A stretch of DNA of 64,000 bases. It comes from Clostridia bacterium (GTDB lineage: Bacteria > Bacillota > Clostridia > TANB77 > CAG-508). The number at the start of each line of letters is the position of its first letter. Position 1 is the first letter of the stretch. The notes under the pieces were generated by a model, which saw only the letters and a program-made list of their open reading frames with translations, did not search any database and had not been told where the DNA came from. Shown in pieces: positions 8,533 to 54,300 of this stretch. A program made the translations under genes and the position numbers. The DNA is taken from NCBI GenBank assembly GCA_900753245.1, contig CAADYJ010000080.1, positions 3,228 through 67,227 on the forward strand, read 5' to 3'.

Positions 8533-8830
8533 CTATTACTTCCTTTCTAATATTAGCATGCATGTCAAAAAAGCACAATACATATATAATAAAAATTTGT
8601 TTTTCTTACTTAATTCAAAAAAGCTTTTTTTACCTCCTTTACTTAAATTTTTATAATACATTAACATTTATATTTTTTGGGAAATATTAGATTTAAAGAT
8701 AATTTCACAAAATATTTGAATTAACTTGTTTGATTCTTTATTTAGATTTAAATTGAATTAAATAAGATAGAAATATTATATCATTTTTTTCGATTTTGTA
8801 AATAGTTTTATGTAAATATAATAACATTTA

Positions 8831-12431: not shown

Positions 12432-12624
12432 TTTTTAATTAGCCCCCTATTTATTAATTTCTTGGGTAATTTTAAAATAGATTTCAAGTTCTATCCACTG
12501 CTGGTGCAAATTTTATTGTCGCCTTTTATCTTTTTAAAATTTATTCAGTTATTTTTCTCAATTAGGAACTGTACCTAATTGCTACTTTTTCCCAATTGGG
12601 GATAAATCCCCAATTGGAATTTTT

Positions 12625-36600: not shown

Positions 36601-39600
36601 TAAATCTGAAGTTCTTCTTAATGTATATCCTTGATTAATGTATAAGTTAGCATCATTTTTGTATAAGTAATGTATTTTTTTTTCTATTACATTACTTCCA
36701 TTTATTTTTAACCCCTTCAATAGATTTAAATTGTATGTTGTCGTTCTCTTCTCTTGTTTATTTTTATCTTCTATTAATTCTTCATCTCCTGTAGCTATAA
36801 TAAAATTTGAATATATTGGATATAAATCGTTCTTACGCACTGTTTTATTGTTTTGTGTTACATCTTTTCCTGTATAAGAATTTAACATACAATCTTTTAC
36901 ATATTGTATCATTTCATTAATTTCAGTAGTATTACTATTTGATTTTTCTTTTATTAAGTTTCCAAATTCATCTATAACAGCTTCTTTTGTTTTTACATAT
37001 TCACCATTTTCGTTAAGAGTATAACCTTGTAATTGTTTTTTAGTAAATGTTTTATTTGTTCTATTGTTTTCTTCTGTTACAGTATAGTTTGCAGGTGATG
37101 AACCTATTGATGCAAATCTTGCATTTATTGCTTTTCTTTCTTCTTGTACATCTGTACCATTAGAATTTATATTCCAGGTTCCTTCTTTATTTTCTTCATA
37201 CTTAACCCATCCGTCGCCTTTATCAGATGGACTTACATATTCTACTGGTTCATAATATTGTGAATTATATGTAAATTCTACAAAATATTGATACATAGAA
37301 TTTATTCCTGTGAATAAATACCTACCATTAGAATCTGTTTTAGTTGGATTTTGTATTTGTTCTTTTTTTCCTTTTTTGTCTGTACCTTCATATGATGTTA
37401 ACTCAGCTTTTATTTTATTTCCATTTTTATCATATCTATATAAAGTTACAATTACGTTTGGCATAGGTTTATCAGTTTGATTATTTATTGCTTTTGATTT
37501 ATCGTATACATTATCATTTTCTGTCATCTTTCCGCCTTTTGTGTCTTCCCAAACTTGTCCGCCAAGTTCCATTGTTAAATCTAAATCATATGGTGTTATA
37601 GTTACTGTATACTTTTTCCATGTTCTTTTTCTACTTGTTAACATTGCTAATTTTTGTGCATTGTATTTTATTTTTGTATCTTCTTCCCAAGTTTGAAATC
37701 TGTATTTATAATAATAATACGTCCTTATTGTTATTTCAGTATCTCCTTCACCATCATTATCAGTATCTACCCATTTTTTATCACATCCACTTTCTGTTCC
37801 AGTATTTTCCCATTTCAATCTTCCTCTTATCTGAAGAATTCTTCCTTTTCCAGTATATGTTGTATATTTAGCTTCTGTAGTTTGTAAATATGCGAAGTTC
37901 ATTTTTACTTCTACTGATGTAGGATAATTAGCTTCTTCCGCATTAAATTTTACCCAAAATTTTTCACCACTTGTTGGATATTCATTTCCATTAAGTGTTA
38001 TAATTTGTATTTTATCTAATCCTAATTTTGTAACATTATTATTTACTGCTGAATTTTTAGTTTCTATCCATATATCTTCTATATATGAAAATTTAAGATT
38101 ATCTGGATACTGTACTGAAAAAGGTCCTGCTATATATGTCTTTTTATCTCTTTCAACTACTATCTTAGAATCCGAACTAAATGGTACTACATGATCTTCA
38201 TAATTTTTTAAATATGTATTGTAATAATCTTGATATTTATCAGCTTCTTCTTTTAAGGATGTTGCATTACTATTACTATCTGAGGTATCGTAAGCATCCC
38301 CTTCATTAAATCCAGGTTTATCCTTCCATAAAGCGTCTTGTATTACTTGTTCATCTGCTATATCACTAAATGTTGATGTATAATTTCCCTTTTTAAATTT
38401 TATTTTATCACTAGTAGGGCTAAATTCTGGTCCTGAACTTAATATATATGCTTCTTTATTATTTTTAGGTGTTGAGCTTCCCGCTTCTGACCATGTAGGT
38501 GTTTCGCAATATACGTTTCCATAATATTCATTCTCTCTAAAATCATCTATAATTGTTGGAGTTGTAAAACTAAATCCTTTATAATATTGAAATAACTGTG
38601 TTGATACATTAGTTGATGCTTTATAATAGTCTCCTCCATCTAATAGCTTTTTCGCTTCAGCTTTTGCTGAGGCTTTTCCTGCATATGTATAATAATTTAT
38701 TATTCTTTCATCTATATTTCCTGTAACATATTGATCAATTCGGTTAATAACTGGTGTAAATCTTATACTTCCATGTTTTTGTTTGCATAATAATAAACTT
38801 AGAGTATCTTTTATTGTTTTATTATTTTCTCCTCCAGATATGCTATAATTATGACTACCATTATTATAAATTGTAGGTAAGAATTCTAATTTATTTGTAT
38901 TAGCATCTGTATGTTTCCAATCATAATGTGCTGTTTTATCCCAAGAACCTGGATTTTTTGTTATTTCTGTTGTGTTAGCTGAAGCATTAAAATGTTTTTT
39001 ATTTATATCTTCTATTTCTTCAAGCGAAGCTCTCACTTTACTTACAAGTACTCTTTTTATTCCTCCACATGTATATTCAGTTACATTTCCTACTTTTACA
39101 GTTGCTGTACATTTATATTCTTTATATGTGCATTTATATGTTCTATCATTTATATCTTCAAATACTGTTACTGTTCCAAGATATTGTAATGGTCCAACAT
39201 GATTATCTGGGTCAAGTCCATAATTATATTTTTTTCCATTATAAGTATATTCTGCATTACTATATATTAAACTTGAATCTTGCACTTCTTTTTGATAATC
39301 TTGCTCATCATTTTTATACGTTTCACAACAAGGATACCATTTATGCCAAATTGCATAATTATTACATGTTGCTTTCTTTTTTCTATGCTCTATAGGCGCT
39401 TCTTCATGTTCATCTGGATTATAAACTAATTCCGTATGACTTGGATGTTTTGAACATTTATATTCTATAGCTGTTATACATGTTGGATCAGGATCGTTGG
39501 CATTGCATTTTTCTAGATAAGGTTTATGATTTTTTGAATTTATTTTTGTATCATAATCTTTTCCACATGATTTACAATGATTTTTTCCTTTAGTAACACA

Positions 39601-39972
39601 ATCCCCTTTAGAAACTGGTGTTTGGTCTCCTACATGATTATTAGGATCTATATCTCCTACATCGTAATCTTTATTACATGATGTACAATGCATTTTTTTC
39701 TTTGATATACAATTAGCTGCTGATTGTGTTTTTTGTGTTCCTGTATGGTTATCTGCATTCTTACTACCTTTTCTATATTCTTGTTTGCACTGTTTACAAT
39801 ACCATACTTCTCTACTTGTACAAGTAGCATCTGCTCTCTTTTCTTGTTTTGTATCGTCATTATGTGTACATTTAGTTGCTCCAATTGATTGAGTAGAATA
39901 TATTACTGTTAAACCTGCAAAAGCTAAGAATAACGCTATTAATATAGTTATTATTTTCATTCGTTTTTCCAC
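33676..39972 (-). CDS. giant secreted cell-surface protein B1 (2098 aa): signal peptide, Cys-rich repeats, Cna-B/SdrD-B-like and DUF11-like domains, C-terminal sorting-signal-like tail (ILPPFGN + TM + RRKILKK). Probable GTG start
   Basis: Cna-B-like units, for example QVWEDTKGGKMTENDNVYD...NVIVTLYRYDKNGNKI...TDSNGRYLFTGI and ISGTVWEDERK...GVTVQLVELLDDGKEF. C-terminal ...IQITYQITVTNVGEVDY.... Paralogous to B2 over the C-terminal ~900 aa. GGAAGGTG RBS lies 7 nt before the GTG, which is 19 nt after the A1 stop. Confidence 0.75.
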   Translation of the reverse strand: MEKRMKIITILIALFLAFAGLTVIYSTQSIGATKCTHNDDTKQEKRADATCTSREVWYCKQCKQEYRKGSKNADNHTGTQKTQSAANCISKKKMHCTSCNKDYDVGDIDPNNHVGDQTPVSKGDCVTKGKNHCKSCGKDYDTKINSKNHKPYLEKCNANDPDPTCITAIEYKCSKHPSHTELVYNPDEHEEAPIEHRKKKATCNNYAIWHKWYPCCETYKNDEQDYQKEVQDSSLIYSNAEYTYNGKKYNYGLDPDNHVGPLQYLGTVTVFEDINDRTYKCTYKEYKCTATVKVGNVTEYTCGGIKRVLVSKVRASLEEIEDINKKHFNASANTTEITKNPGSWDKTAHYDWKHTDANTNKLEFLPTIYNNGSHNYSISGGENNKTIKDTLSLLLCKQKHGSIRFTPVINRIDQYVTGNIDERIINYYTYAGKASAKAEAKKLLDGGDYYKASTNVSTQLFQYYKGFSFTTPTIIDDFRENEYYGNVYCETPTWSEAGSSTPKNNKEAYILSSGPEFSPTSDKIKFKKGNYTSTFSDIADEQVIQDALWKDKPGFNEGDAYDTSDSNSNATSLKEEADKYQDYYNTYLKNYEDHVVPFSSDSKIVVERDKKTYIAGPFSVQYPDNLKFSYIEDIWIETKNSAVNNNVTKLGLDKIQIITLNGNEYPTSGEKFWVKFNAEEANYPTSVEVKMNFAYLQTTEAKYTTYTGKGRILQIRGRLKWENTGTESGCDKKWVDTDNDGEGDTEITIRTYYYYKYRFQTWEEDTKIKYNAQKLAMLTSRKRTWKKYTVTITPYDLDLTMELGGQVWEDTKGGKMTENDNVYDKSKAINNQTDKPMPNVIVTLYRYDKNGNKIKAELTSYEGTDKKGKKEQIQNPTKTDSNGRYLFTGINSMYQYFVEFTYNSQYYEPVEYVSPSDKGDGWVKYEENKEGTWNINSNGTDVQEERKAINARFASIGSSPANYTVTEENNRTNKTFTKKQLQGYTLNENGEYVKTKEAVIDEFGNLIKEKSNSNTTEINEMIQYVKDCMLNSYTGKDVTQNNKTVRKNDLYPIYSNFIIATGDEELIEDKNKQEKRTTTYNLNLLKGLKINGSNVIEKKIHYLYKNDANLYINQGYTLRRTSDLALNKDVYKVTLETNGQTHEYTYNKLDKFKCNNCGRTGTNDELNFSEDYGVNTCPNCGSENVQNVWDIDLRLSDIGLIDSEKRYYNTEYTRELYASDYAYKVSMYGNYNELGKSKDDELKVYITYKIGVRNQSQSILCRADEIVDYYDEDLTYVPERSYIQVSNKKYLVNGNNASIYKQAGTRTDINHYKNLYITGLGKNSQEIDNNGNNVRSEAEGLYLTSGKTAYIYLTFEVNKKTENNEDWIILDEDLATGNVIGVGKENIAEINGYTTKYKEGTTIPNVEGDVSGQPAGIVDRDSNPGNLNPTDVPKDGTPNYKNFEDDTDKAPNIKLKIDRNDDHNRVISGTVWEDERKVSGEKVAIGNGLRENSETLIDGVTVQLVELLDDGKEFVWREFGTNQIGNFGTNAIGKGTGSGTVQSETPIIGLSNIVGNIDLGNEHKGKYAFKSFMPGKYVVRFIYGDTVRTVYPSELGGLNSKSYNGQDYKSTTYQKDIPQNKTYEWRRNSTWVNGQEQKGEIITKIHAYNTDNCTNNETAIKKQLNDNEQKGYLYDITTADSISLSKNQNASDAKDIESRRNKVIEYSEKNVTNYKAEVLAAHKADYNTMNSREDLIKDLIDNTKMTAETGMMVIEFEYDRTQTDTKDAVQDTSIYKVQNVDLGLEERPKAQLEINKEVTNVKLTLADGSTLFDAKQTASNILWKDHKKYDTGYKNNMLDENKFGSIANIRAKNTKDSRLGLIQLSMDEELMHGAKIQITYQITVTNVGEVDYKDNQFYYTGTVADKNTIVKTTANQIIDYVANNLQFDSSLAENTDWEVITQDKLITQDKTQDLVNKNLKSKVERYNTIITTKENATIAKTELVPDLYDNKKSSASTNLVLTQLITAENKTDDLTYKNIVEIVKTSNNVGRRNEYSVVGNQDPTMEPQEIDSDRAEIVKILPPFGNAGLYIIITITTIIAIGLLAGGIVFIRRKILKK

Positions 39973-39990: not shown

Positions 39991-42900
39991 CTATCCTAAT
40001 ATTTTTCTCTTTATTACATAAGCACTTGCTGTTATAGCACTTATTATTCCTAAACTTAATACTATAAATAATATTGTCTCACCAGTTTTTACTGTTAAAA
40101 GTACATCTGCTGAAGACATATCATCTTCTCCAGATACTTTATTTGCTGGTGTTGAGTCTACATCTTGTAAGCCTAAGTCATTATATGCTTCTTGTATTTC
40201 TGCTGTATTATTAATTAACCCTACATTTTCTTGTGTTAGCTTTTTAGTTAATAATAATGTTATTTCTTTTGTTTCTCCTGGATTAATTAAAGTATTTGCT
40301 AAACTTGAACTATAAATTGCTCCATTTTCTCCTTGATACCAATCTTTATTTAGTTCTGAATTGAATTTTAGTTCTGCTGGAATGTAGTCTGCTATTTTTT
40401 TAGCATATCCAGATACAGCACCTTCGTTAGTTACTTTAATTTTATATTCTATTACAATTGTTGTAGAATTAATTTGTTTTCCTACTAAATCACGTTTTGC
40501 AAGTTTTGTATCTTTATAATCATATGTTTTTGTTCCTGTAGAATCTTGAACTGTTATTTTTGATACTGCTTTGTCTAGTTTTAAGTCAAATTTAGGATTT
40601 ACTACTAACCCTAAGTCTATATTATAGATATTTGAATTTGTTACTTCTATTTCTTCTGTTATTGCTGCTGTTCTTTTTTCTTCTCCTAATATTATTTGTG
40701 TATCTATAGCATCTGAATTTAATGTTGAATCTACTCCTTGCTTTCTATAAGTAGTGCTACTGTAATTTGCTGTATCGTATAAGAATATTACTGTATATTT
40801 TCCTTTTGGTACTTCTGTAAATGTGTATTTTCCATCTTCTGATGTTGAAATTTTTTCTTTTTCTAAGTTTCCTGTTACATTGTTTAATAACATAACTTCA
40901 ACATTTTGCATTTTCTTTTCTTGTTCATCTTTTTGTCCATCTTTATTTTCATCTAGCCATACTTGTCCACTTATTCTTTTGTTTTCTGACACATTAGGAT
41001 TATCATTGTCTGTAATTTCTGTAGCCTTTAAAGTATGTGAAATAGAATTTATTTCTATTTCTTTTTTATCTATTGTTGCTGTTATTTTATTTGTTATTTT
41101 TGTATCTTCTTCAACATACCCTACTCTAGCATATATCTTTATTTCTTGCTTTTCACCATCCTTTAATGCTAATATAATTTTTAGTTCATTGTCTTCTGTT
41201 AAAACTATTCCTTTTATTTCTTCTTCTTTTAAATCTTTCATTATTGTAGCTTTTTCAAATACTAATTCTTTTGGAAATTTATCTATAAGTTTTATTCCCT
41301 TACTTTCTCCTGTTTTACTTCCTTTAGATTCTATTATAATTTTATATTCAAATTCTTCTGTTCCACTTATATTTTCTCCTTCTGGTATAGTACAAGATTG
41401 AGTTATACTTAAAGAATTTTTTATAATTGTTATTACTTTTTCGTCTGTATTTTCTTTTTCTACATTATCTGCATATACAGTAGTTTTTATTTTTAAATCT
41501 TTAGAATATACTTCTTCTTTTGTTTCTTTTACTTTTAAATTTATTTTTAAAGTTTGAGAGTCTTGAATTTTTAGTTCTAATCCTGTAATTTTCAAAATTT
41601 CTGTTTTTTCATCATATGTTATTTTCGATTTATCTATTTCTTGTTTTCCATATGTTGCTTTTATAAATTCTAATTCTGTAGGTATATTAATTTCTATTAT
41701 AGTATTTTTAGTTTCATAATATCCATATATGTTTAACTCATAATTAACATTCGTTCCTTCTTCTACATTTTTTATATTGTTTTCTTCATTATCTACTGAT
41801 ATTTCTTGTTCTAAAGAAAAAACCTTATTTCTTACATAGTTAGTTATTTTATCTGTTTCTATTTTGGCTTCTAATCCTTCATATTCTATTGTAGCTTGTG
41901 TCGAGATCTCTTCTTTTTCATTAATATCTCCATCTATTCTTTCTATATAAAATTTAAATATTTTTTCTATTGTTTCTCCTTGTTTTAATGTTGATATTGT
42001 ACATATTCCATCTTTAATATTTTCATCATCTCCTGAATATATTGCATTTTCAGGAGTTGGAACTGTTATTTTTAAATTATTAGCTGCTAAATCTCCAGAG
42101 TTTGTTACTTTAACTGTATATTCAATTTCATCGTCTGATAATATTGTTGCTCCATTTTCTACATTTGCACTTATACTTGCTTCTATTTTTGGTCCTTGTC
42201 CTGTTGTTGCACCAACTTTTGCTGTTTCTTGTCTATCTTCTACTGTTCCTTCTTCTAAATTATTTGAATAATATACTGCATATGTTTCAAATGAAGATTG
42301 GTTATGTTCTAGTCCTTCTTCTACATTTGCATTATAATTAAATGTTATTGCCTCTCCTGTTGGCATAACATAATCGTTTGTTACTATTAAATAAGATTTA
42401 ACTTTACTTAAATCTGTTGGTTCTGCTACCCATCCATTTGATTGTACATTTAAGTCTTTTGTTGCTTCTCCATTTTCTGAGTAATAAACTTGTACTTTAT
42501 TTGAATCTATTCCTTCTACACTTATTCCTGTTGTTAAGTCTAAATCCATTGTTGAGTTTAAATCTTTGTTGCTTAATATTTCTTTGTTTCCTGCAAATGG
42601 TGTTCTTCCTAAGATTGAAACATTTTCTATATCGTTTTTATAGTTATTCATTACACTCATTTTAAATGTTGCTTCTTTTTGGCTTGATAGTATTGGTAAT
42701 TCTGCAACTTTTTCTTCACCTGTAATTGATGTTAATTCTTCTGCTCCATCTTTATAGTTACTAATTCCATTCATTGTAACTATTCCAACTGGTGCTGAAA
42801 AACTTATTTTATTTGTTACTTCATTTATTTCTGAGTTTTCATCATTTTCGTTTGTTACTACCATTGATATTTCTGAATCTATATTTGGTGTTAGTTTGTT

Positions 42901-44904
42901 TACTGTTATGTCTGCTGTAATAACTACGTTTGTTCCTCCTGCTAAATTTTCTAAATTATATTGTGTTTGTGTTCCTTGTAATTCCAATGCTATTGTTTTT
43001 GTTCCATCTGCATTTTGTATTAAGTTTGCATTTTTTACTGTTAATTCTTTATCAAATAATACTTGTATGTTTTTTACATTAATACTTTCTATATAAGAAG
43101 GTAATTTAATTTGTATTGTTGGATTTTTATATAGTTTGCAATCTAAAGAGTTTGTTTTTAGTATTGCTTTTATTTCTACATTTTCGTTTGTTACTACTGT
43201 TGATAGGTTTTGATTGTTTATTACTAATTCTGTTTCAAAACTTGGCTCTACAAATGCTACTACTTTATTTGCTGTTTTTTGTTCTACTATTTGTCCTGCA
43301 TATATTGCATCTACAGTTGTATTTATTTCTAATGAAGTAAATTTTTCCATTTGCTTTTTGCTGTATTTTATATCTGTTTTTATTGCTTTTGTTGCTTTTA
43401 CTTTTATTTCACCTTCTGTTAATGGTTTGCTTGTTTCCATTGCAATTTCAGAGGCTTCTATATTAGATATGTCTACTTCATATTTTTCTTTGTTTATTGT
43501 GTCTATTATTGTGTTTCCTACTTTTATATTAATAAATCCATCTTCTCCTAAGAATTTATTAAACTCTTCTTTTTCTACACTTACTTTCTTAATATATTGT
43601 GTAGCTGCTCCTTTTGTTTTTTCGTCTATTACAAAGTTATCTGTATTTAAGTTTATTGCTATGCTATCTACTATATCTACTAATCCTATATTGGCTGTTA
43701 TGTTTTCTTCGTATTGTGTTTCATTTTTTTCTGTTGCTTCATAATTTGCATATATATAACCTTTGCTTAATGTTTCTACGTTAGTGTTTACTTCTGTATT
43801 TATTACGTTTCCTATTTGATCTTTTAATAGTATTTCTCCTTTTGCTTCATTTTCTATTATGTCTTCTTTTGCTCCATATGTTGTTATTTGTGCTTTTGTT
43901 TGTATTTGTATTTTATTTCCTTCTTCTGGCACATTGTTTAATATTTCTTGTGGATATATGTATGTTATTATGAATTTGTCTTCTGCATTTTTACTCCAAG
44001 AAATATTTCCTTGTTCATCTATTTTGTTTTCTACTTTTATTGTTATTTTTCCTGTTTGTTCGTCATATTGATAGTTTTCTTCGTTAAAGTTTTGTGCGGT
44101 TTCGTCTCCATTTGTTGCTTTTGTACTTTCTGCTACTATTTTTACTGAAGTTGGTTTTTGGTTTGCTATTACTGGTGCTATTATTTCTATATTTTCTTCT
44201 TTTACTGGCATAGCATTATTGGCTACTGATGATTTTATTTGTGTTTGTAACATTACTCCTTGGTTGTTTGCTACTGTATATGGTATATATCTTGTAATTT
44301 GTTCTTCTAATGCTAATGTTGTTTCTTGTGTCCAATCTAGTTTTACTTTTATTTGTGCTTTTATTTGTTTTTCTTTTCCTTTTGCATCTATGTATGTTCC
44401 TGTCAATTTCGCTATGTTTTCTTGACTAAATTGGTTTAATGTTATTGTATCTTTATTGTCAAAAGATATTGGGATTTGAACACTTACTTGTTTGTCTTTA
44501 TTGATTTGGTTTAGTTCTATGCTATTTTCTTCTTTGTTTAATTTTGCTACTGCTTTATTTTCTTGTGCTAAGTCTTGTAGTTTAAAGTTTGCAGTTTTAT
44601 TTTCCTCATTTGCTCCAAATTCTATTTTTGCATTTTTTAAATATCCAGCGTTTTTAACAGCAATACCTATGTTAATGCTGTTTTCTTCTCCTATTTTGCT
44701 TTCTTTTTCGTGTGTCTTGCTATTTTGACTTACAAAGTACGCGTCAAATTCTACATTTTCGTTGTTTGTTTTCACACCTTGTACTTCTAGTTCATTTTCT
44801 GCTGCATATACTTTTTTCGCATAAATTCCTATTGTTGATGCATATGCTAAAAGCATGACCATTACTATTTCACTTGCTATTATTTTGCGAATTATTTTTT
44901 TCAT
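39991..44904 (-). CDS. giant secreted cell-surface protein A1 (~1637 aa from the second ATG): multiple Ig-like/DUF11 repeats, a Cna-B domain, isopeptide-pilin-like C-terminal domain, C-terminal LLTVKTGE + TM + KRKILG
   Basis: Signal peptide MKKIIRKIIASEIVMVMLLAYA. DUF11-like YTVKVTNSGDLAANNLKITVP. Cna-B ISGQVWLDENKDGQKDEQEKKMQNVEVMLLNN...DGKYTFTEVPKGKYTV. GGGGAGG RBS sits before the second ATG (44904). Paralogous to A2. Confidence 0.75.
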   Translation of the reverse strand: MKKIIRKIIASEIVMVMLLAYASTIGIYAKKVYAAENELEVQGVKTNNENVEFDAYFVSQNSKTHEKESKIGEENSINIGIAVKNAGYLKNAKIEFGANEENKTANFKLQDLAQENKAVAKLNKEENSIELNQINKDKQVSVQIPISFDNKDTITLNQFSQENIAKLTGTYIDAKGKEKQIKAQIKVKLDWTQETTLALEEQITRYIPYTVANNQGVMLQTQIKSSVANNAMPVKEENIEIIAPVIANQKPTSVKIVAESTKATNGDETAQNFNEENYQYDEQTGKITIKVENKIDEQGNISWSKNAEDKFIITYIYPQEILNNVPEEGNKIQIQTKAQITTYGAKEDIIENEAKGEILLKDQIGNVINTEVNTNVETLSKGYIYANYEATEKNETQYEENITANIGLVDIVDSIAINLNTDNFVIDEKTKGAATQYIKKVSVEKEEFNKFLGEDGFINIKVGNTIIDTINKEKYEVDISNIEASEIAMETSKPLTEGEIKVKATKAIKTDIKYSKKQMEKFTSLEINTTVDAIYAGQIVEQKTANKVVAFVEPSFETELVINNQNLSTVVTNENVEIKAILKTNSLDCKLYKNPTIQIKLPSYIESINVKNIQVLFDKELTVKNANLIQNADGTKTIALELQGTQTQYNLENLAGGTNVVITADITVNKLTPNIDSEISMVVTNENDENSEINEVTNKISFSAPVGIVTMNGISNYKDGAEELTSITGEEKVAELPILSSQKEATFKMSVMNNYKNDIENVSILGRTPFAGNKEILSNKDLNSTMDLDLTTGISVEGIDSNKVQVYYSENGEATKDLNVQSNGWVAEPTDLSKVKSYLIVTNDYVMPTGEAITFNYNANVEEGLEHNQSSFETYAVYYSNNLEEGTVEDRQETAKVGATTGQGPKIEASISANVENGATILSDDEIEYTVKVTNSGDLAANNLKITVPTPENAIYSGDDENIKDGICTISTLKQGETIEKIFKFYIERIDGDINEKEEISTQATIEYEGLEAKIETDKITNYVRNKVFSLEQEISVDNEENNIKNVEEGTNVNYELNIYGYYETKNTIIEINIPTELEFIKATYGKQEIDKSKITYDEKTEILKITGLELKIQDSQTLKINLKVKETKEEVYSKDLKIKTTVYADNVEKENTDEKVITIIKNSLSITQSCTIPEGENISGTEEFEYKIIIESKGSKTGESKGIKLIDKFPKELVFEKATIMKDLKEEEIKGIVLTEDNELKIILALKDGEKQEIKIYARVGYVEEDTKITNKITATIDKKEIEINSISHTLKATEITDNDNPNVSENKRISGQVWLDENKDGQKDEQEKKMQNVEVMLLNNVTGNLEKEKISTSEDGKYTFTEVPKGKYTVIFLYDTANYSSTTYRKQGVDSTLNSDAIDTQIILGEEKRTAAITEEIEVTNSNIYNIDLGLVVNPKFDLKLDKAVSKITVQDSTGTKTYDYKDTKLAKRDLVGKQINSTTIVIEYKIKVTNEGAVSGYAKKIADYIPAELKFNSELNKDWYQGENGAIYSSSLANTLINPGETKEITLLLTKKLTQENVGLINNTAEIQEAYNDLGLQDVDSTPANKVSGEDDMSSADVLLTVKTGETILFIVLSLGIISAITASAYVIKRKILG

Positions 44905-45366
44905 AGTTCTTTTTCCTCCCCAATTTTTTGACATATTTTTGGCTTATTATATATATTAACTAAATTTTTGCATATTTTTTGTCGTTTTTCAAGGTGTTTT
45001 CCTTTGATAGCAAGCGTTACAGCGTTTATCTCTTTACGGAAACTAGTTTTCAGCTTTTTTTATTAAATTTTAGTTACATTGTTACATTTTTATTTCTTAT
45101 TGCTTTTTTGCTGTTTTTTTCCATTTTTTTATTTTTTATATTTTTTGTATTCCTTCTGTTTCTAGTATTTTATGTTTTTTATTGTATTTTTTGTTTTTAT
45201 TGATTTTTTTTATTTTTTATTTTTTTGTCTTTTTTAGCTTGTAAATACTACGGCAATTGGATTTGCGTGTTTTTTAACTTTTATCTTAATTCAACTAAAT
45301 ATCTAACTTGTACTTTTGTATAAATTGATTAAAGTTATAATTTATAATACTTTTTCTTGTTTTCTG

Positions 45367-45395
45367 TTGACATAAGTTTGTTTTTATGTTTTAAT
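45367..45395 (+). promoter_or_regulatory. Candidate promoter (TTGACA-N17-TTTAAT) for the Rpn gene
   Basis: Perfect -35 hexamer read directly. The -10 matches 4/6. Confidence 0.3.
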
Positions 45396-45566
45396 ACTTT
45401 TATTAGATTGCATAAAATGCAATTGTTTATTTTCTAATAATTTATTCAATTTTTTAGTTCTTTTTTTAATCAATTTTTTATTATTATGGTAAGTAAAAAT
45501 AACAAGGAAAGGAGGTTTATTTGTTTTATGCAATTTAAAATAATTTTGTAGAAAGGATATTTTATT

Positions 45567-46568
45567 TTGACTAAAAAAAATCTTCCAGCTCCTAAAATGG
45601 ATGTTGTTTTTCAATCTCTTTTTAAAAAGGGAAATGAAAATATAACTATGGCACTTATTTCTGACATTATAGGTAGAAAAATTAAAAAAATAGATTTAGA
45701 TAAAAACAAAAGTTTACTTAGAGAATATACTAAAGATAAATTGGGAATTTTGGATCTAATTGCTGTTTTAGACGACGGTGATATTTGTAATATTGAAGTT
45801 CAACTAGCTGATAATAAAGATATAGAAAAACGCTTATTATATTACCATTCTAAAATTTATTCTCAACAGATGTTGGTTGGTGACAAATATGTTGATTTGA
45901 ATAAGACTATTTCTATTGCTTTATTAGATTATAATTTAGAACAATTACGTCATGTAGAAAAAGCTCATACTTCATGGCATATTAAAGAGGATGAAATTAA
46001 TGGATTAATATTGACAAATGAGTTAGAGATGCATATAATAGAGTTACCAAAGATAAGAAAGATGAGTAGGAATGGTAAAAAAGATGCTATTATTGATTGG
46101 ATGTTATTTTTGGATAATCCAAATAATAAGGAGGTTTCTGAAATAATGAAAACAAACAGAGAAATAGAAGAAGCAATGCAAAAGTTAGAGGAAATCACTT
46201 CTGATGAGGAATTAATGAGAATTATTGATTTAAGACGAAAAGCAATATTAGATGAAAATCAAAGAAGATATATTGCAGAAAAAGAAAGAAAAGAGGCCGT
46301 AGAAGAAGCTGTTAAAGAAGGGCTTGAAAGAGGCATGAAACAAGGTATAGAACAAGGCATTAAAAAGGGTATTGAACAAGGCATTGAACAAGGCATTGAA
46401 CAAGGCATTGAGCAAGGAATCGAGCAAGGAATCGAGCAAGGAATCGAGCAAGGCACTAAAAATGAAAAATTTAGAATTGCTAAAAATTTGATTTCTCTTA
46501 AATATGAAATTGATAGTATTGTAAAAATAACTGGCTTATCTAAAGAAGAAATTGAAACTATTTTATAA
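45567..46568 (+). CDS. Rpn-family (YhgA-like, PD-(D/E)XK) recombination-promoting nuclease / putative transposase, intact. TTG start
   Basis: 333 aa. Contains the D...DxxxE(V)Q block (ILDLIAVLDDGDICNIEVQLAD), a coiled-coil C-terminal half, and the conserved tail ITGLSKEEIETIL shared with the 7644 pseudogene. Confidence 0.7.
   Translation: MTKKNLPAPKMDVVFQSLFKKGNENITMALISDIIGRKIKKIDLDKNKSLLREYTKDKLGILDLIAVLDDGDICNIEVQLADNKDIEKRLLYYHSKIYSQQMLVGDKYVDLNKTISIALLDYNLEQLRHVEKAHTSWHIKEDEINGLILTNELEMHIIELPKIRKMSRNGKKDAIIDWMLFLDNPNNKEVSEIMKTNREIEEAMQKLEEITSDEELMRIIDLRRKAILDENQRRYIAEKERKEAVEEAVKEGLERGMKQGIEQGIKKGIEQGIEQGIEQGIEQGIEQGIEQGIEQGTKNEKFRIAKNLISLKYEIDSIVKITGLSKEEIETIL
46344..46451 (+). repeat. 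Coding microsatellite: 9 tandem 12-nt units (GGCATTGAACAA / GGAATCGAGCAA) encoding (GIEQ)n in the Rpn protein
   Basis: Read directly. The protein shows GIEQGIKKGIEQGIEQGIEQGIEQGIEQGIEQGIEQ. Confidence 0.85.
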
Positions 46569-46589
46569 ATAAAATGTATTAATTTAATA

Positions 46590-46628
46590 ATAAAAAACCA
46601 ATTAAGATTTTTTCTTAATTGGTTTTTT
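46590..46628. terminator. Bidirectional terminator between the Rpn gene and B2
   Basis: AAAAAACCAATTAAGA-TTTTT-TCTTAATTGGTTTTTT. The 12-bp stem is flanked by A-runs and T-runs. Confidence 0.65.
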
Positions 46629-46633
46629 ATTAC

Positions 46634-49600
46634 TTATTTTTTTAAAAATTTCTTTTTGATAACAATTATTCCTATTACTAAAATTCCTACGGCTGCGAAT
46701 ATTGTGCTTGTTATAATTATTATATTCTTCATTTCACCAAATGGTGGTAATATTTTCACTACTTCTGCTTTATCACTATCTACTTCTGCTGATTCTGACG
46801 TTGGATCTTGATTTCCTACTATAGAATAACTGTTTATTCTACCTACTGTATTACTTGTTTTAACTATTTCTACTATGTTTTTATATGTTAAGTCTGAGCT
46901 TTCATTTTCTGGTGTAATACTTTGTGTTAGATATAAAGTTTCTTCTGCACTACTATTTCCTCCATTTGTTTGTGAGTAAATAACTGGTACTAATGGTGTT
47001 TTATTAATTGCACTATTTTCTGTTGTTGTTATTATTGTATTAAATGTATTTACTTTGTCTTGTAATCTAGCATTTACTAACTTTTGATTTGTTATTTCTT
47101 CTTTACTTATTACTTTCCAGTTAGAGTTTTTAGTATTATCAAATTGTAAATTATTTGCAACATAATCTATTACTTGGTTTGCTGTAGTTGTTGCTACTTT
47201 CTTTTTATCTGATACTATTCCTGTGTAATAGAATTGGTTATCATTATAGTCTGTTTCTCCTACGTTCGTTACTGTTAATTTATAAGTAATTTGTATTGTA
47301 GCACCATGCATTAATTCTTCGTCCATACTTAATTGTACTAATCCTGATTTTTTTGCATTAGAATTTCTTATTTGAGTTAATATTCCTTTTGCATAAACTG
47401 GTTCATATGTTTCATTTTTCTTCCACAATACATTTGTTGCTGTTTGCTTTGCATCAAATAATACTGAACCATCTGCAAGTACTACTTTTACATTGTCCAC
47501 TTTTTTGTTTATTGCAAGTTGTGCTTTTGGTCTTTCTTCTAATCCCAAGTTTACGTTTGCAACATTGTATTGTATGTCATTGTTTCCTTGTTGATTTCCT
47601 AATTCTATTTTATCTTTTTCTACTTCTACATTAATGTTACCTGTTTCTGCTGTCATGGCTGTTAATTGTTTAAATTTTTCTATTTGTTGTCTTAATGTTT
47701 CTTTTGTTGTTCCTTCTGGAACATTTCTATAAGATGCTAATAATTCTGCCATTTCGTTTGTTATATTGTTAGAAGAATTTTTTATTGTTTCTTGTCTACG
47801 GCTTGCAATATCTTTTGCCACAGATACATCTTTTCCGTCTAATGCTGTTATATTATATAAATATGTTCCTGTTTCATTTTGATTTGCATAGTCTTTATAA
47901 CCATATATATCTTTATTTAAATATTTTAAGTAATATTGTCCTTCTTGAGATATTCCTGGCTCATATGTTGTTGATTTATAGTCTTGTCCATTGTAAGATC
48001 TTGAATTTTTTCCTTTTGCTCCTAATGTATTTGTTACGTCTGTTTGTGTATTTGTTAATACTGTCTCATCGTTGTCTCCGTAGATAAATCTTACTATGTA
48101 GTTTCCTGGTACAAATGATGTAAATACATATTTACCTTTTGTATTATCTGTTACTGTTTGTACTATGTTATTTGAATTAATTATTGGTTCATATGTTCCT
48201 TGGCCTGTTAAAAATTCTTTCCATACGTATTGACTACCATTATCCATTAATTCTACTAATTGTACTCTTACTCCGTCAATTCCTTCTTCTCCTTTTTCTT
48301 TTTTACCATTACCTGTTGCTGTTGCTTGAGCTTTTTCATATTCTGTTCTATTATCTTCCCAAGCTGTTCCTTCTATTGTTCTGTTGTCTTTTTCTAATAT
48401 AACTCTTAAGTTTATTGCTTTATCTGTATCATCTTCAAATTTATTTACATCTACTGGTGACTCAATATTTCCTGGTACAGAATCTCTATCAAAAAGTCCT
48501 GCTACTTTATTATTATCTGTTAATCCTACGTTTGGAATTTCTGTTCCTTCTTTATATTTTGTGCTATATCCATTTATTTCTGCTATATTTTGTTTTCCTA
48601 CATCTTGTTCATCTAAATAGATAAATCTTGATGGATCCTTTCTTACTTTAAATGTTAAGTAAATATTGGCTGTTTGTCCTGATGATAAATATATTTCATC
48701 TAAGCCTGTAATATATAAGTTGTTATACCCTTCACTTTCTAATGATGTTCTTGTATTTGCTGAATATTTACTTTGTTCACTTGCTTTTACATTTTCATAT
48801 TTTACCTTGTTAGCTCCACTTCCAATTTCTATATATGAACGATCATTTACATATTCGTATTCTTTATCATAGTAATCTACTATTTCTTCTATTTTTGTTC
48901 TTATTGATTGTGATTGGTTCCTTACCCTAATTTTATATGTTACATATACTTCTAATTCTCTTTGCTCAGTTTCTCCATATTTTTGAGCTATTTGATTAGT
49001 ATTCAATGAATTTTGTTCTGAGTAATCTTCTACTTTGTATAGGTAATCTGATTTGTATATTTCTCTTGAATATTGTGTATTATAATATGCTGCATCTGAA
49101 AGTCTTACTCCTATATCCCATATTGTATTGTCGCCTTCTTGAGTTACTTGTTCCTCTTTTGCTCTTTGGTTATAGTAGTATGTTTCTTGTCTTCCTTTTA
49201 TTTCTATTGTTGCTTTTTCTATTTCTTTCATTAATGCTACATCTGCTACTTCTCTTCTTGCTAAGCCAAAGTCTATTTGTAGATGCTCTGGATATAATGC
49301 TTTATATTCTACTCCCATTATTGTTCTTGATTTATATCCTATAGTATATTTATCATATATTGGATATACTTTTCTTTGAGTATCGTTTCCTGTAAATGAT
49401 GATATTCTATTGTCTTCTATGAATTGTAATTTTCTTTTTGTTTCTTCTGTGTTTCCAAATTTTTCTAATGCATTTTTATATGCTTTTTCATAACTTTTTG
49501 TTTCTGATGCTTGATCTATTACGTATTCATATATTTCTTTTATTCCGGATTCAGATTTTTCATTTATATCACTTGTATATGTATTTCCTGATGCATTACT

Positions 49601-51313
49601 ATATTTTAATATAGTATATGCTTTATTGTATGTTCCCACTTCGTAATATAATTTTCTTCTTACTTTGTAGTTTTCTGGATATGAACCTATTTGCTCGTAG
49701 TCTAAATTATATTGTTCTCTTTGTGTTTTTATTTCTGTTGCATTTGAATATCCGCCTGATAAGTTATCTTCGTAATATGTTGGTTGATACATTTGTCCAT
49801 TATATATAAATTCTATATAATATTTGTATTTAGAATCTACTTTATCAAATTCATAATGTCCGTTTTTATCTGTTACTGTTCTTGCTACTTCTTTGTTTTT
49901 AGATGCTTCATATAGTACAACCTCTACTCCAGGTAACATTTTTTCTGTTTCATCTTTTTTACCATTTAATTTTGTCTCTTTTGTTTGTTTATCATCTTCC
50001 CATACATTTCCTGCTAATTTAATTGTTAGATTTTTCTCTCCTGGTATTTTTATATCAAGTGATGTACTTTCTAAGTGCCTTTTTCCATCTGGTTCTAATT
50101 GATCTTGATATGCAACTATTTCTTCTTGGAATTTAGTTGATACCTTGTCACTATAGCAACATCCTGAACAGTATGTTATTCCGCCTTTTCCATCTGAATG
50201 ACCATCACAATGTGCTGTATGTGAATGTGAGAATACTGCAACATATTTATGTGATTCAAAATAGTATAATTTTGCTTCTGCTTTCATCCACTTAAAGTCT
50301 ACATGTATATTTTTTATATGTATATCTTTGGGAGCTTTTATTTTTATATAAAATTGTTGTCCTGATGCTGGGTAATTTTGTGCTCCAGTATCTACTAAGT
50401 TTTTGTCATCTACTGGTGTAAAATATCTTGGTTTTATTTCTTTTTTAAAGTTTCCTTCAGAGTCTTTTACTATAAATGATTCTATTTCTATACGATCTGT
50501 TTTTTCTCCTACTACATACATATCTGATATTCCACCAAATACTATTCCATAATTTCCATTTATATAAGTCATAGAAAATGGTCCTACTAGGTATTCTTGT
50601 TTTGTATAGTCTCCTAATACTCTAACATTTTCTTCTTTTGTTGTATTTTGTGGATTCATTGTTCCATTATTTTTATCTAGTTTTCTTGCAAATTGTTCAT
50701 AATATGCTGCTTGTAATGCTAATTGTGATGCTGTAATTCCATTTCCTGTTACTTTTGGTGCTTTTTTGTTTTTATTCAATGTTGGTGTTTCCCATATTGC
50801 TTCTTGTTTTATTGCAGACCAACTATTCCAGTCTGGATCAGGATAAGTTACTATAAAAGCTTCTGTATATGTTGCTGCTTTTTGTTCTTTTAAGAAGTAA
50901 TATGGTCTAGAATAGATTTTTCCTTTTCCTGCATCTGGTGTTGTTACTTCTCCATGTGCTGATTCTTTTCCATTCCAAGTAGTTACCAAATCTTTTATAT
51001 CTTCTTTTGTCTTTCCTTTTCCACTTAAGTGTGCACCTTTAGCTGCACAATATAACTGTCTTTGATCTACTAATACTCTCCAATAACTTGAATCTCCACT
51101 TTGTATTTTTTGAAGGTTGTCTGTATTTACTTCAAAGCTTCCTCCAATGTTTCCACTAGATCCATAGTCTGCAAGTGTTGGTGCTTGTTTAACTTTTTGC
51201 AATGCTACTGTTTGTGAAATAACATTAGGGGATTTTTTTAGTAAAATATATCCTAATACTAATGTTAATAATATTATTATTGCTATACTAGTATTTTTTA
51301 TTATTTTCTTCAT
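46634..51313 (-). CDS. giant secreted cell-surface protein B2 (1559 aa), paralogue of B1. C-terminal ILPPFGE + TM + KKKFLKK
   Basis: Signal/TM MKKIIKNTSIAIIILLTLVLG. Cna-B-like LPGVEVVLYEASKNKEVARTVTDKNGHYEFDKVD. The C-terminal ~900 aa are collinear with B1 (GLEERPKAQL..., LSMDEELMHGA.IQITY..TVTNVGE.DY.DNQFYYTG...). AGGAGGGG RBS lies 5 nt after the A2 stop. Confidence 0.75.
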   Translation of the reverse strand: MKKIIKNTSIAIIILLTLVLGYILLKKSPNVISQTVALQKVKQAPTLADYGSSGNIGGSFEVNTDNLQKIQSGDSSYWRVLVDQRQLYCAAKGAHLSGKGKTKEDIKDLVTTWNGKESAHGEVTTPDAGKGKIYSRPYYFLKEQKAATYTEAFIVTYPDPDWNSWSAIKQEAIWETPTLNKNKKAPKVTGNGITASQLALQAAYYEQFARKLDKNNGTMNPQNTTKEENVRVLGDYTKQEYLVGPFSMTYINGNYGIVFGGISDMYVVGEKTDRIEIESFIVKDSEGNFKKEIKPRYFTPVDDKNLVDTGAQNYPASGQQFYIKIKAPKDIHIKNIHVDFKWMKAEAKLYYFESHKYVAVFSHSHTAHCDGHSDGKGGITYCSGCCYSDKVSTKFQEEIVAYQDQLEPDGKRHLESTSLDIKIPGEKNLTIKLAGNVWEDDKQTKETKLNGKKDETEKMLPGVEVVLYEASKNKEVARTVTDKNGHYEFDKVDSKYKYYIEFIYNGQMYQPTYYEDNLSGGYSNATEIKTQREQYNLDYEQIGSYPENYKVRRKLYYEVGTYNKAYTILKYSNASGNTYTSDINEKSESGIKEIYEYVIDQASETKSYEKAYKNALEKFGNTEETKRKLQFIEDNRISSFTGNDTQRKVYPIYDKYTIGYKSRTIMGVEYKALYPEHLQIDFGLARREVADVALMKEIEKATIEIKGRQETYYYNQRAKEEQVTQEGDNTIWDIGVRLSDAAYYNTQYSREIYKSDYLYKVEDYSEQNSLNTNQIAQKYGETEQRELEVYVTYKIRVRNQSQSIRTKIEEIVDYYDKEYEYVNDRSYIEIGSGANKVKYENVKASEQSKYSANTRTSLESEGYNNLYITGLDEIYLSSGQTANIYLTFKVRKDPSRFIYLDEQDVGKQNIAEINGYSTKYKEGTEIPNVGLTDNNKVAGLFDRDSVPGNIESPVDVNKFEDDTDKAINLRVILEKDNRTIEGTAWEDNRTEYEKAQATATGNGKKEKGEEGIDGVRVQLVELMDNGSQYVWKEFLTGQGTYEPIINSNNIVQTVTDNTKGKYVFTSFVPGNYIVRFIYGDNDETVLTNTQTDVTNTLGAKGKNSRSYNGQDYKSTTYEPGISQEGQYYLKYLNKDIYGYKDYANQNETGTYLYNITALDGKDVSVAKDIASRRQETIKNSSNNITNEMAELLASYRNVPEGTTKETLRQQIEKFKQLTAMTAETGNINVEVEKDKIELGNQQGNNDIQYNVANVNLGLEERPKAQLAINKKVDNVKVVLADGSVLFDAKQTATNVLWKKNETYEPVYAKGILTQIRNSNAKKSGLVQLSMDEELMHGATIQITYKLTVTNVGETDYNDNQFYYTGIVSDKKKVATTTANQVIDYVANNLQFDNTKNSNWKVISKEEITNQKLVNARLQDKVNTFNTIITTTENSAINKTPLVPVIYSQTNGGNSSAEETLYLTQSITPENESSDLTYKNIVEIVKTSNTVGRINSYSIVGNQDPTSESAEVDSDKAEVVKILPPFGEMKNIIIITSTIFAAVGILVIGIIVIKKKFLKK

Positions 51314-51318
51314 TATAT

Positions 51319-54300
51319 TTATCCCCTCCTTCTTGGGTATGTTATTTTTTTCATTTTGTTATAAGATACATATCCTATTGCTATTATTGCTATACAAATT
51401 AGTGCTGAAATAAATCCTACTATTCCTACTATTTCACCTGTTTTTATTGATATAACAAGGTCTGCTGATGACATATCATCTTCATTTGAAACTTTATTTG
51501 CTTCTGTAGAATCTATATCTTTTATTCCTTCTTTATTATATGTTTCATATATTTCTGCATTGTTATTTACTATTCCAGTTCCATCTTCAGCTATTTTCTT
51601 TGTTAATGTTAATGTAACTTCTTTAGATTCTCCTGGTTGTAATTCTACATTTGCTAAGCTTGCATTATATAAATCTTTGTTGCTAGATTGATACCAGTCT
51701 TTATTTAACTCTGCACTGAATTTCATATCTTGTGGTATATAGTCTACTATTTTCTTTACGTAGTTTGCTACATCGCCTTCATTTTTTACAATTATTTTAT
51801 ATTCAACTATTACTGTTGCTTTAGATAATTGTTTTCCTGGTACTTCTACTTTTGCTATTTTTGCATTGTTATATTCATTTACTTTTGTTGTGTCTCCATA
51901 TGTTAATGTTACTTTGCTTATATATTTTTCCAAGCTTAAATCTGATTTTGGTGTTACATACATACCAACGTCTATATTTCTTGCATTACTATCTTTTATT
52001 TGAATAGTATCTGATACAGCTACTATTTTATTTGTTCCATCTATGTTCATTTCCATAGAAATTGCATCTGAATTTACAATTTTACTTACATCTTCTTTTT
52101 GATATTGTGTCAAAATATATTTTGAATTGTCATATTCAAATACTACAACGTATTTTCCTTCTGGTATGTTTTCAAATGTATATTTTCCAGAGTCTGATGT
52201 AGTTGTTATATCCTTTACTAATTCATTATTTTCTTGGTTGTATAGTCTTACTTTTAGTCCTTTAATAGTTTCTTCGTCTTCATCTCTTTGTCCATTTTTA
52301 TTAGAATCTATCCATGCTGTCCCTGATATTTTATATCTTCCTTCTACATTATTGTTATCGTTATTATCTTTATTATCGTCTTCTTGATCTTCTCCATTGC
52401 TGTTATCTTGTGCATTTTTGTTGTATTCTATAATGCTTGTTATTTTGTTAGATTCTATTTTTTTAAATAAATCTCCATATATAACTGCATAGTTTTGAAT
52501 TTGTTTTTCTTTTTCTCCTGAAGTAATTTTGTTTGCTACCACTGTTAATTTTATTGTTAGCTCTTCACTTTTTCCAAAGCTTGTTCTTGTTATTTGTAGT
52601 TTATTTGAATCTATACTTGTAATTTTTTCTGTTCCTGTAGCTGTAATTATTTCTGCATTTTCAAATGTTGTTCCTTCTGGTATTTCATTTTCAAATATGA
52701 AACTGTCTGTATATACATCACTATTATTTTTTATTTTGTATGTATATGTTATTTCTTGTCCTTCTTTAAAGTATTCTTGATCTAGCTTTTGTTGTTCTAT
52801 ACTAAAGTTTAATGTTTGAACTTTATTTGAAACTATATTTGATGTATGTTCTTCAACATTTTGTGCTTTTGCTGTAACTACTGGATTTATTGTTTCTTGT
52901 GCACTTTCTACTTGTGTTTCTACTATAAAGTCTATAGAATCTTCGTTATTATATTGATCTACCTTAAATGTAACTGTATTTCCATTTGTTTGAATATCTA
53001 CTTTTTTATCTTGTGAAGATATTACTCTGTTTTTTGTTGATGTATTTGTTATTTTTAGTCCTTCAGGAACTTTTACTGTTATTTCTAATTGTTTTAAATC
53101 TTCTCCTGATGATATTTCCTCTATTCTTGTAGTGTAAGTTAATTTGCTTCCTTTTGTTAATGTGTAATCTGAAGCTTTATCGCTAGTTACCATTACTTGC
53201 ATTGTTCCTTGTGCTAATTTTAAACTATATTCATTTGAGCTAATTGCTTTTGTCATCTTATTTGCCATTACACTTGCTGATGTTTTCATTGTTAGCTCTG
53301 GTTCTACTAGTTTTCCATTTTGCATTGGTAATGATTTTTTATCAATGTTTACTTCATCTATTTTTAACTCATATTCTACTTGTTTTTCTTCTCCAGCTTT
53401 TAAGCTTCCTATTTGAATTATTTTACTTGTTTCATCTTGATCTTCATATTCAGAAATATAATCATCTTCTACAAATTGTGTATGTTTCGTTTTATATGTA
53501 GCAACCAATTTTCCTTCTCTTCCATCTAAGTTCTCTGTAAAGTTTATTTTTCCATTTTCTTCGTAATAATAAATATTTGCACTTGGTGCTGTTATATTTA
53601 ATGTTACATTTTCTGCATCCATACTACCTGTATTTTTTACAGTTGCTCTAAATTTTACATATTGTCCTTTTCTTACTACTGAATTTTCACTTGTATATGA
53701 TGTTACATATGTTTCTAGTTTTGGTGCTTCTCCTGTTGTTAAAGAAGCTCCTAATGCTACTACTTTATCATTTATAGTTTGACTTTCTTGTACGTTATCA
53801 AAATATACTGTGTATACTGAATTTACTTTTTCATTATAATTTAAGCCTTCTGGTATTTGCATTTCATAGCTAAATTTTATGCTATCTCCAGTGTTCATTT
53901 CGTAATTTTGTAATACTATTAAATAAGATTTTACATTACTTAAATTTGTTGGTTCTGCCATCCATCCATTTGATGGTAAATTTAAGTCTTTTGTTGCTTC
54001 TCCATTTTCTGAATAATATACTGTGTATTGACCTTCTGACATTTGACTTGATGTTATTTTATTTAGCATTACTGCATCAAATGTATTTTCTAAGTTTTCG
54101 TTTGATTCTGTTTTTGTTGTTTTAGTTGTTAAAGTTCTTCCTAATATGCTTATATTATTTATTTTATTTGTATAATTGTTAATTAATTGAATTTCTGACG
54201 TTGCTGTTCTTGCTGGTGCACTTACTTCAATAATTCCTTGTTCTTGGCTTCCTGCTATAGAACGAATTTGTTTGTCTTGTGCATAATTAGAAATTGTATT

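Follow-up and report, generated by a model that had tools for sequence, protein, structure and literature searches.

The window analysed here is a stretch of 64,000 nucleotides (nt) from the Clostridia bacterium contig CAADYJ010000080.1 (assembly GCA_900753245.1, positions 3,228 to 67,227, forward strand), with a G+C content of 27.6%. It carries rpnL, a full-length Rpn-family PD-(D/E)XK nuclease gene that lies between two minus-strand pairs of giant surface-protein genes and is the sole real plus-strand gene of that stretch. The open reading frame (ORF) list agrees on this point with a preliminary description of the same DNA. We describe this gene, the signals within it for a putative shorter in-frame product (RpnS), and its conserved leader. 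The locus sequence recurs in many human-gut metagenome assemblies, and the nearest named genomes are those of uncultured Clostridia. The best match in a genome scan was 63% identical, a metagenome scan returned one further close locus only, and the phage collection held distant homologues only (≤30% identical). The gene and the features within it are as follows.

45567-46568 (including the stop codon), plus strand: rpnL, the full-length Rpn-family PD-(D/E)XK nuclease gene, 333 amino acids (aa), TTG start (ORF list and translation).
45591-46115, plus strand: nuclease domain, residues ~9-183, with D12, D63, E77-x-Q79 and R89 (conservation, RpnA pattern and AlphaFold2 model).
46011-46039, plus strand: internal sigma-70-type promoter TTGACA-N17-TATAAT, matching the consensus at 12/12 positions, a candidate for a short rpnS transcript (promoter scan and conservation).
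46128-46148, plus strand: internal ribosome-binding site (RBS) AAGGAGG (46128-46134), 11-nt spacer and ATG at 46146-46148 (Met194), the putative RpnS start (homologue scan).
46146-46568, plus strand: putative rpnS, the in-frame C-terminal product Met194-Leu333, 140 aa, a putative antitoxin (promoter, Shine–Dalgarno (SD) sequence with ATG, and RpnS precedent).
46320-46463, plus strand: twelve G-x-x-x units, GLER GMKQ GIEQ GIKK (GIEQ)x7 GTKN, residues 252-299 (Tandem Repeats Finder and translation).
46464-46565, plus strand: small helical C-terminal domain resembling HTH_Rpn_C (hhalign, PF27070 on a 313-aa sister allele, and model helices).

In a Pfam scan the 333-aa protein matched PF12784 (PDDEXK_2) at 147.8 bits (cut-off 27.4), and over residues 11-332 it matched the NCBIfam model TIGR01784, 'Rpn family recombination-promoting nuclease/putative transposase', at 139.4 bits (cut-off 52.1). 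RpnA of E. coli K-12 scored 160.9 bits on the same model. The Rpn family also corresponds to COG5464, and all homologues from annotated plasmids bear the Rpn-family name. Across an alignment of 80 homologues the catalytic residues D63, E77, Q79 and R89 were invariant and D12 nearly so. The catalytic pattern and its spacing are those of RpnA, in which D11, D63, E82, Q84 and R94 matter by mutagenesis (Kingston et al. 2017, PMC5350276), and the distance from Q to R is 10 in both proteins; the residue correspondence was drawn by pattern and spacing, hhalign having aligned the C-terminal 39 residues only.

In the AlphaFold2 model of the protein (mean predicted local distance difference test score, 89), an alpha/beta domain extends to residue ~183. 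It is followed by short helices (188-211), a single continuous helix (214-310) and two short helices at the C-terminus (315-322 and 326-332). Residues 293-331 aligned by hhalign with residues 251-289 of E. coli RpnA (probability 88%, E 3e-6), and PF27070 (HTH_Rpn_C) is precomputed on the 313-aa sister allele. Between the window allele and this sister allele, dN/dS was 0.044. Together with the family, catalytic and domain evidence, this ratio indicates that the rpn gene is intact and under purifying selection, as expected from the preliminary description, which had called it an intact Rpn-family PD-(D/E)XK nuclease.

The internal promoter overlaps the codons for L-T-N-E-L-E-M-H-I-I and is the sole perfect TTGACA-N17-TATAAT on both strands of the 64-kb window, where 0.06 would be expected. 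Of 38 homologue genes, 11 have a 12/12 promoter at the corresponding alignment position, and each of these 11 is ≥36% identical. When synonymous codons were resampled with each locus's own usage, a 12/12 match arose in 1-6% of trials (p 0.008-0.06 per gene; Fisher combination over eight independent lineages, 2e-6).

For internal translation starts, every in-frame ATG, GTG or TTG with an upstream anti-SD match was scanned in the 38 homologue genes. The matches peaked only at query positions 192-195 (28 matches, compared with 0-4 elsewhere). The residues under the internal SD vary (KEV, GEV, EEV, MEV, REEE, RRL and others), whereas the purine run is retained. The codons GAG and AAG are rare in the window (8.5% of Glu and 10.7% of Lys codons, respectively), and synonymous resampling gave a Fisher p of 6e-13 over 21 lineages for conservation of the SD. 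Both the promoter and the SD with its ATG are conserved at the nucleotide level. The same SD and ATG signal was seen in four further orthologues, in a Bacillus cereus plasmid Rpn, and in a decayed Rpn paralogue elsewhere in the window. In the plasmid gene, annotated as Rpn-family (L119, plasmid pMLY1.3, 577-1518), the best internal SD with ATG is at Met203, the counterpart of window Met194 in the alignment, ~45 residues ahead of that gene's own G-x-x-x repeats. A long-form RpnS start general to this branch of the Rpn family is suggested by these sequences.

In E. coli rpn genes an internal promoter and an internal start give rise to a small C-terminal protein, RpnS, which blocks the toxic full-length RpnL (PMC10400941). 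In the AlphaFold2 model Met194 lies just past the nuclease domain, at the onset of the all-helical part. This position at the domain boundary, the E. coli precedent, and the conserved internal promoter and SD with ATG lead us to infer a 140-aa RpnS.

Tandem Repeats Finder detected the repeat at 46331-46455 with a period of 12, 10.4 copies and 84% matches. The preliminary description had read nine GIEQ units at 46344-46451; the number of units and their position hold, but they run GIEQ, GIKK and then seven GIEQ, so that GIEQ makes up eight of the nine. All 12 units of the full array sit within the single predicted helix at 214-310. The units differ in DNA and are grouped as blocks (GGCATTGAACAA and GGAATCGAGCAA), which indicates stepwise duplication of units.

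The exact 333-aa protein occurs on 15 contigs; the ten retrieved show 0-14 single-nucleotide polymorphisms per 1.5 kb and no indel, and, having been chosen by exact protein identity, they are a biased sample that is uninformative on copy-number fixation. A sister lineage (P0001/L086) with ~97.5% DNA identity, the same locus and the same surface-protein neighbours encodes the 313-aa protein, which is without exactly five GIEQ units. The comparison of copy number across strains proposed in the preliminary description thus yielded an in-frame change at the same locus, with seven contiguous GIEQ units in the window and two in the sister lineage. Among the best 120 homologues, G-x-x-x runs range from 0 to 22 units, with GIEQ common. 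The repeat changes are all in frame, and the units retain a G-hydrophobic-polar-polar pattern.

The four-residue repeats of Rpn proteins, each unit a dodecamer in the DNA, differ widely between strains of one species (Zhong et al. 2023, PMC10400941; commentary PMC10400984). They lie in a long helix common to the toxin and the intragenic antitoxin and set pairing specificity (PMC10400941), and inhibition is lost when only one partner gains a unit (Zhong et al. 2023, PMC10400941). The GIEQ array is the known hypervariable four-residue repeat of the Rpn family. The proposal that it would change linker length without a frameshift is right about the in-frame change and wrong about a neutral linker, since the repeat lies in the helix common to toxin and putative antitoxin. 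In one assembly (L117, ~12509-12608) a 100-N scaffold gap falls within the GIEQ repeat with duplicated flanks, and the array seemed longer but was uncountable; because the repeat breaks short-read assembly, copy numbers from such scaffolds are unreliable. NCBIfam FliH models matched residues 238-309 (E 1e-7 to 1e-11), but at 29-43 bits against cut-offs of 180-293, and a FliH identity was rejected. A sequence search against solved structures gave a sole match, that of the repeat to a Toxoplasma protein, which is compositional.

With a probability of roughly three in four, we interpret the locus as a toxin–antitoxin system of the RpnL/RpnS gene-within-gene type, encoded by a single intact rpn gene. 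In the mechanism that we propose, RpnL, a predicted PD-(D/E)XK DNA endonuclease continued by a single very long helix and then a small helical domain at the C-terminus, would be poorly translated from its TTG start and weak AAAGGA site. The consensus promoter at 46011-46039 and the strong internal RBS with the Met194 ATG would drive the in-frame RpnS, which comprises only the helical part. If the E. coli and C. difficile systems are a guide, RpnS would bind RpnL via the common helix and hold the nuclease off until phage infection releases RpnL. As (GIEQ)n would lie in this helix, each gain or loss of a 12-nt unit would add or remove four residues in both proteins together, and such a change may retune toxin–antitoxin pairing and insulate the system from paralogues. 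The same precedents suggest that RpnS is produced, that RpnL is toxic and is neutralised by RpnS, and that the system is antiphage.

Several observations weigh against this interpretation. The Pfam scan at E ≤ 0.01 gave PF12784 alone and no match to PF04754, the family of E. coli RpnA-E. A Foldseek search of the AlphaFold2 model against the PDB returned nothing at E ≤ 0.001, with weak restriction-endonuclease matches only, and PADLOC, which has no Rpn model in it, gave a weak unrelated match of the repeat to 'C3a178 putative invertase'. Met194 is 58 residues before the first repeat unit, whereas in the published systems 8-20 residues separate the RpnS start from the repeats (Zhong et al. 2023, PMC10400941). 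With E. coli RpnA Met244 aligning near window residue 286, the window RpnS would be about three times as long as that of E. coli, unless its real start is at another site. In the scan of the 38 homologues, however, no canonical start codon preceded by an SD lay closer to the repeats (8-20 residues), and the internal start 45-58 residues before the repeats is the only conserved one in this branch. The host organism is known from gut metagenomes only, and the neighbours of rpn are surface-protein genes, with no defence island. Finally, an insertion splits rpn in several strains, so the toxin is dispensable in nature. This insertion is a 1587-bp IS110-family element at 46037/46038, inside the TATAAT of the internal promoter; it codes for a 400-aa DEDD_Tnp_IS110/Transposase_20 protein and leaves a 187-aa truncated Rpn product. 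It was found in several independent gut metagenomes including Hadza samples (L117, 10473-12059, and L120-L123).

The window also holds a second Rpn-family copy (7644-8640, minus strand), a frameshifted pseudogene that is 28% identical to the first. Its ATG is at 8531 (MELNLKNDIVFKAFF...), and the frame is broken near 8400. The remaining ORF at 7644-8309 matches the C-terminal half of PF12784 at 90.6 bits, and the copy is preceded by AAAGGAGGT (8632-8640), which is similar to the SD in the rpn leader. As it keeps its own SD and ATG at the Met194-equivalent position, a stand-alone RpnS-like protein could be made from it. This pseudogene, the IS110-family insertion and the lack of repeat indels in the ten contigs (a set biased by selection on exact protein identity) would fit a selfish or decaying leftover without current function, whose repeat varies by neutral slippage. 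We consider this highly unlikely, given the dN/dS value and the invariant catalytic residues. Rare codons maintain the internal promoter and SD in many species, and the in-frame repeat changes with their preserved unit pattern also argue against it.

Upstream of the gene, and at its start, the following leader features were identified.

45407-45423, plus strand: perfect palindrome ATTGCAT-AAA-ATGCAAT, overlapping a −10-like hexamer (TAAAAT) and regarded as a candidate operator (sequence).
45510-45516, plus strand: strong SD-like AGGAGGT, 47-58 nt from the rpnL start in 8/8 species.
45528-45551, plus strand: mini-ORF ATG CAA TTT AAA ATA ATT TTG TAG, encoding MQFKIIL, within the block TGCAATTTAAAAT (sequence and conservation).
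45552-45569, plus strand: weak rpnL initiation region, AAAGGA (45552-45557), 9-nt spacer and TTG (sequence and conservation).

Four leader blocks are common to eight species, i.e., the palindrome (6/8), AGGAGGT(G), TGCAATTTAAAAT, and AAAGGA-N8-10 followed by the start codon (TTG in six species, GTG in one, ATG in one). This leader clearly has a function. In six of the eight species the palindrome takes the form AATTGCA-N5-7-TGCAATT and lies 153-251 nt upstream of the start; a weak promoter-like match covers 45391-45418 in the window. A third copy of TGCAATT is found at 45529-45535, beside the rpnL RBS, and in L114 a TGTA/TACA variant (TACAAT/TTGTAT) appears alike in the palindrome arms and in the downstream copy. 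The nonamer GAAAGGAGG at 45507-45515 is kept in 8/8 species. No Rfam match was obtained at the locus (E ≤ 1) or in the whole window (gathering score).

The preliminary description had noted the mini-ORF and the SD upstream of it, both of which are present, although the mini-ORF spans 45528-45551 and not 45529-45552. It is in the same frame as rpnL. If this upstream ORF (uORF) of seven codons were translated, termination after MQFKIIL could couple or attenuate RpnL translation, as an addition to the RpnL/RpnS model. The uORF block ATGCAATTTAAAAT is conserved in the leader, and in species keeping MQFKI both substitutions in its codons (CAA to CAG, ATA to ATC) are synonymous. In the window the stop adjoins the AAAGGA site, and L011 and L116 show a classical coupling layout in which the uORF stop (TGA) and the rpnL TTG overlap. 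However, the mini-ORF starts with ATG in five species, GTG in one, ATA in L114, and in L115 with an ATG directly followed by TAA; the frame is not kept in 2/8 species, and peptide length and C-terminus vary. The GGAGG (45511-45515) is 12 nt ahead of the mini-ORF ATG, and 12-22 nt ahead across species, outside the 5-11 nt between SD and start in the window's own genes. Leader folding is also not significant and shows no covariation: the consensus RNA fold was empty and single-sequence z-scores were -1.5, -2.0, -1.1 and +0.8. Coding use of the mini-ORF is a tentative proposal that we regard as less than probable.

The leader elements may instead act at the RNA or DNA level. AGGAGGT(G) would then be a STAB-SD-like stabiliser of the toxin mRNA, or a hairpin arm pairing with CUCC/CACCU in codons 7-9. 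It occurs in 8/8 species, its distance from the rpnL start stays nearly constant (47-58 nt), and no start codon follows it at a suitable spacing; these observations are consistent with such a role, as is the recurrence of an AGGAGGT-like element upstream of the distant decayed paralogue. The STAB-SD of Bacillus cry3A is a described element of this kind (PMC12970973). Minimum-energy folds pair GGAGG with codons 7-9 in 4/8 species (window, L089, L112 and L114) and give a shifted GGUG-CACC version in L091; on the other side stand the weak fold z-scores and the empty consensus fold. The TGCAATT copies at 45407-45423 and 45529-45535 would be operators, possibly for autoregulation by the Rpn C-terminal domain. 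The palindrome in 6/8 species and the G to A change of L114 in both palindrome arms and the downstream copy favour this, but such covariation is limited to L114, TGCAATT shows no enrichment in the window (19 copies against 23 expected), and DNA binding by RpnS is unreported, so the sites are candidates only. Overall, action at the RNA or DNA level is a possible role, but one we hold as doubtful.

Combining leader and gene, the Clostridia/Bacilli branch of PF12784 could have a distinct layout, in which an antitoxin of ~140 aa comes from a perfect internal promoter and is paired with a weak toxin start and a regulatory leader; this broader proposal is speculative and rather unlikely. In such a layout the antitoxin may start at the boundary between nuclease and helix, 45-58 residues before the repeats, and the palindromic operator, the third half-site and the stand-alone AGGAGGTG may serve autoregulation or mRNA stabilisation, with the Rpn C-terminal helical domain itself perhaps binding DNA. 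Such leader logic is undescribed for Rpn systems in the literature examined.

The surroundings of rpn comprise two pairs of surface-protein genes and a terminator.

51319-56331 and 46634-51313, minus strand: giant surface-protein genes A2 and B2, respectively (ORF list).
39991-44934 and 33676-39972, minus strand: giant surface-protein genes A1 and B1, respectively (ORF list).
46588-46632, no strand assigned: hairpin terminator (stem of 20 pairs, then a T-run) separating the convergent genes rpn and B2 (terminator scan and inverted repeat).

The hairpin probably terminates transcription of both genes, from either direction. Between the divergent A1 and rpn lies a degenerate, T-rich tandem repeat (45115-45236; periods 8, 17 and 18). 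The four surface proteins (1559-2098 aa) have SdrD_B and DUF11 domains and form two old paralogous pairs. These genes vary between strains, as B2 is split into 537 and 980 aa in strain L004 and short ORFs (290 and 235 aa) stand at the place of A1 in strain L005.

The location of rpn exactly between the two cassette pairs underlay the proposal in the preliminary description that Rpn, acting in recombination or transposition, gave rise to the A1-B1/A2-B2 junction or homes to it. Overexpressed E. coli Rpn proteins do increase RecA-independent recombination (PMC5350276), and Zhong et al. 2023 speculate that RpnL might promote local duplications (PMC10400941). The cassettes, however, share 48% protein identity between A1 and A2 (over the C-terminal 302 aa only) and 38% between B1 and B2, with patchy DNA identity of 65-76%, and their duplication is therefore ancient. 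Repeats common to the rpn flanks and the cassette boundaries, or between the flanks, were sought as the preliminary description had advised, and none was found beyond T-rich low-complexity matches. The absence of a sequence relationship between cassette boundaries and rpn flanks was an outcome that the description itself had named as speaking against the idea.

The genomic context of homologues points the same way. In a marmot-gut relative whose Rpn is 68% identical, Rpn is followed by a B-type and then an A-type gene, so this Rpn-B-A arrangement is older than these species. Further close homologues, 58-75% identical, are found in unrelated housekeeping contexts without duplicated cassettes: one lies downstream of rpoC (with a leucine-rich repeat protein gene and a 257-aa ORF between) and immediately precedes an amidohydrolase gene, others follow groEL, spoVS or rplS, and one is downstream of divIVA adjoining an rsmD-like gene. 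The published analysis of rpn genes reported no terminal repeats, no evidence of transposition, and a patchy single-gene distribution. In the window, too, rpn is a single-gene unit with no terminal inverted repeats, the nearby inverted repeats being the terminator hairpin and A/T-rich leader arms. An insertion sequence or autonomous transposon was rejected on the lack of terminal repeats and on the other copy in the window being 28% identical and frameshifted. A role for Rpn in making or targeting the junction is therefore very improbable. Under the RpnL/RpnS interpretation, the gene is an ordinary member of the known antiphage RpnL/RpnS class, not a recombination device for the neighbouring duplicates.

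The reading of this gene as a recombinase at a duplication junction should be dropped in favour of an annotation of the locus as probable RpnL/RpnS defence module. The Rpn family, its four-residue repeat variation and gene-within-gene toxin–antitoxin organisation are already known; the modest new elements, all computational, are the perfect internal promoter, the putative long-form RpnS start and the conserved leader. The locus offers a testable RpnL/RpnS example outside Proteobacteria, and its two natural alleles, five units apart at one locus, are material for repeat-specificity tests in Gram-positive systems. Intragenic antitoxin starts can be found from sequence via rare-codon analysis, which is usable for family-wide annotation of RpnS starts. 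The conserved leader, with its palindrome, stand-alone SD and mini-ORF, hints at an extra, unstudied layer of toxin control.

Among known systems, the glycine repeats (GxxxG) of FliH/YscL form a helix of G-x-x-x periodicity as in the window repeat, a likeness that is compositional only, the window having no flagellar or type III secretion context. The TAEL repeats of the EcoR124I/EcoR124II specificity subunit are a comparison made by Zhong et al.: an in-frame change in how many four-residue helical repeats are present alters molecular spacing and thereby specificity. TAEL repeats set the spacing of DNA target half-sites, whereas Rpn repeats are thought to set toxin–antitoxin pairing. For the leader, the STAB-SD of Bacillus thuringiensis cry3A (Agaisse & Lereclus 1996, cited in PMC12970973) has the same nonamer GAAAGGAGG, and in both cases an SD-like leader site is tens of bases upstream of initiation without a well-spaced start codon. 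The two differ in that an ATG is 12 nt downstream in the window, where mini-ORF translation is possible, and the likeness is one of sequence alone.

The closest systems are RpnL/RpnS of E. coli (RpnA-E), plasmid RpnP2 and C. difficile Rpn (PMC10400941, PMC5350276). The window Rpn belongs to PF12784 and E. coli RpnA-E to PF04754. The putative window RpnS has 140 aa and starts 58 residues before the repeats, whereas RpnA-S has ~50 aa with repeats 8-20 residues after its start. The internal promoter of the window is a perfect consensus, unlike those of the precedents, and the window system is known only as sequence. The window gene nonetheless shares with these systems the TIGR01784 assignment, the D/D/ExQ/R pattern and a homologous C-terminal helical domain, as well as strain-variable repeats of 12 nt and four residues, an internal promoter with RBS and ATG, and the form of a single-gene unit without terminal repeats.

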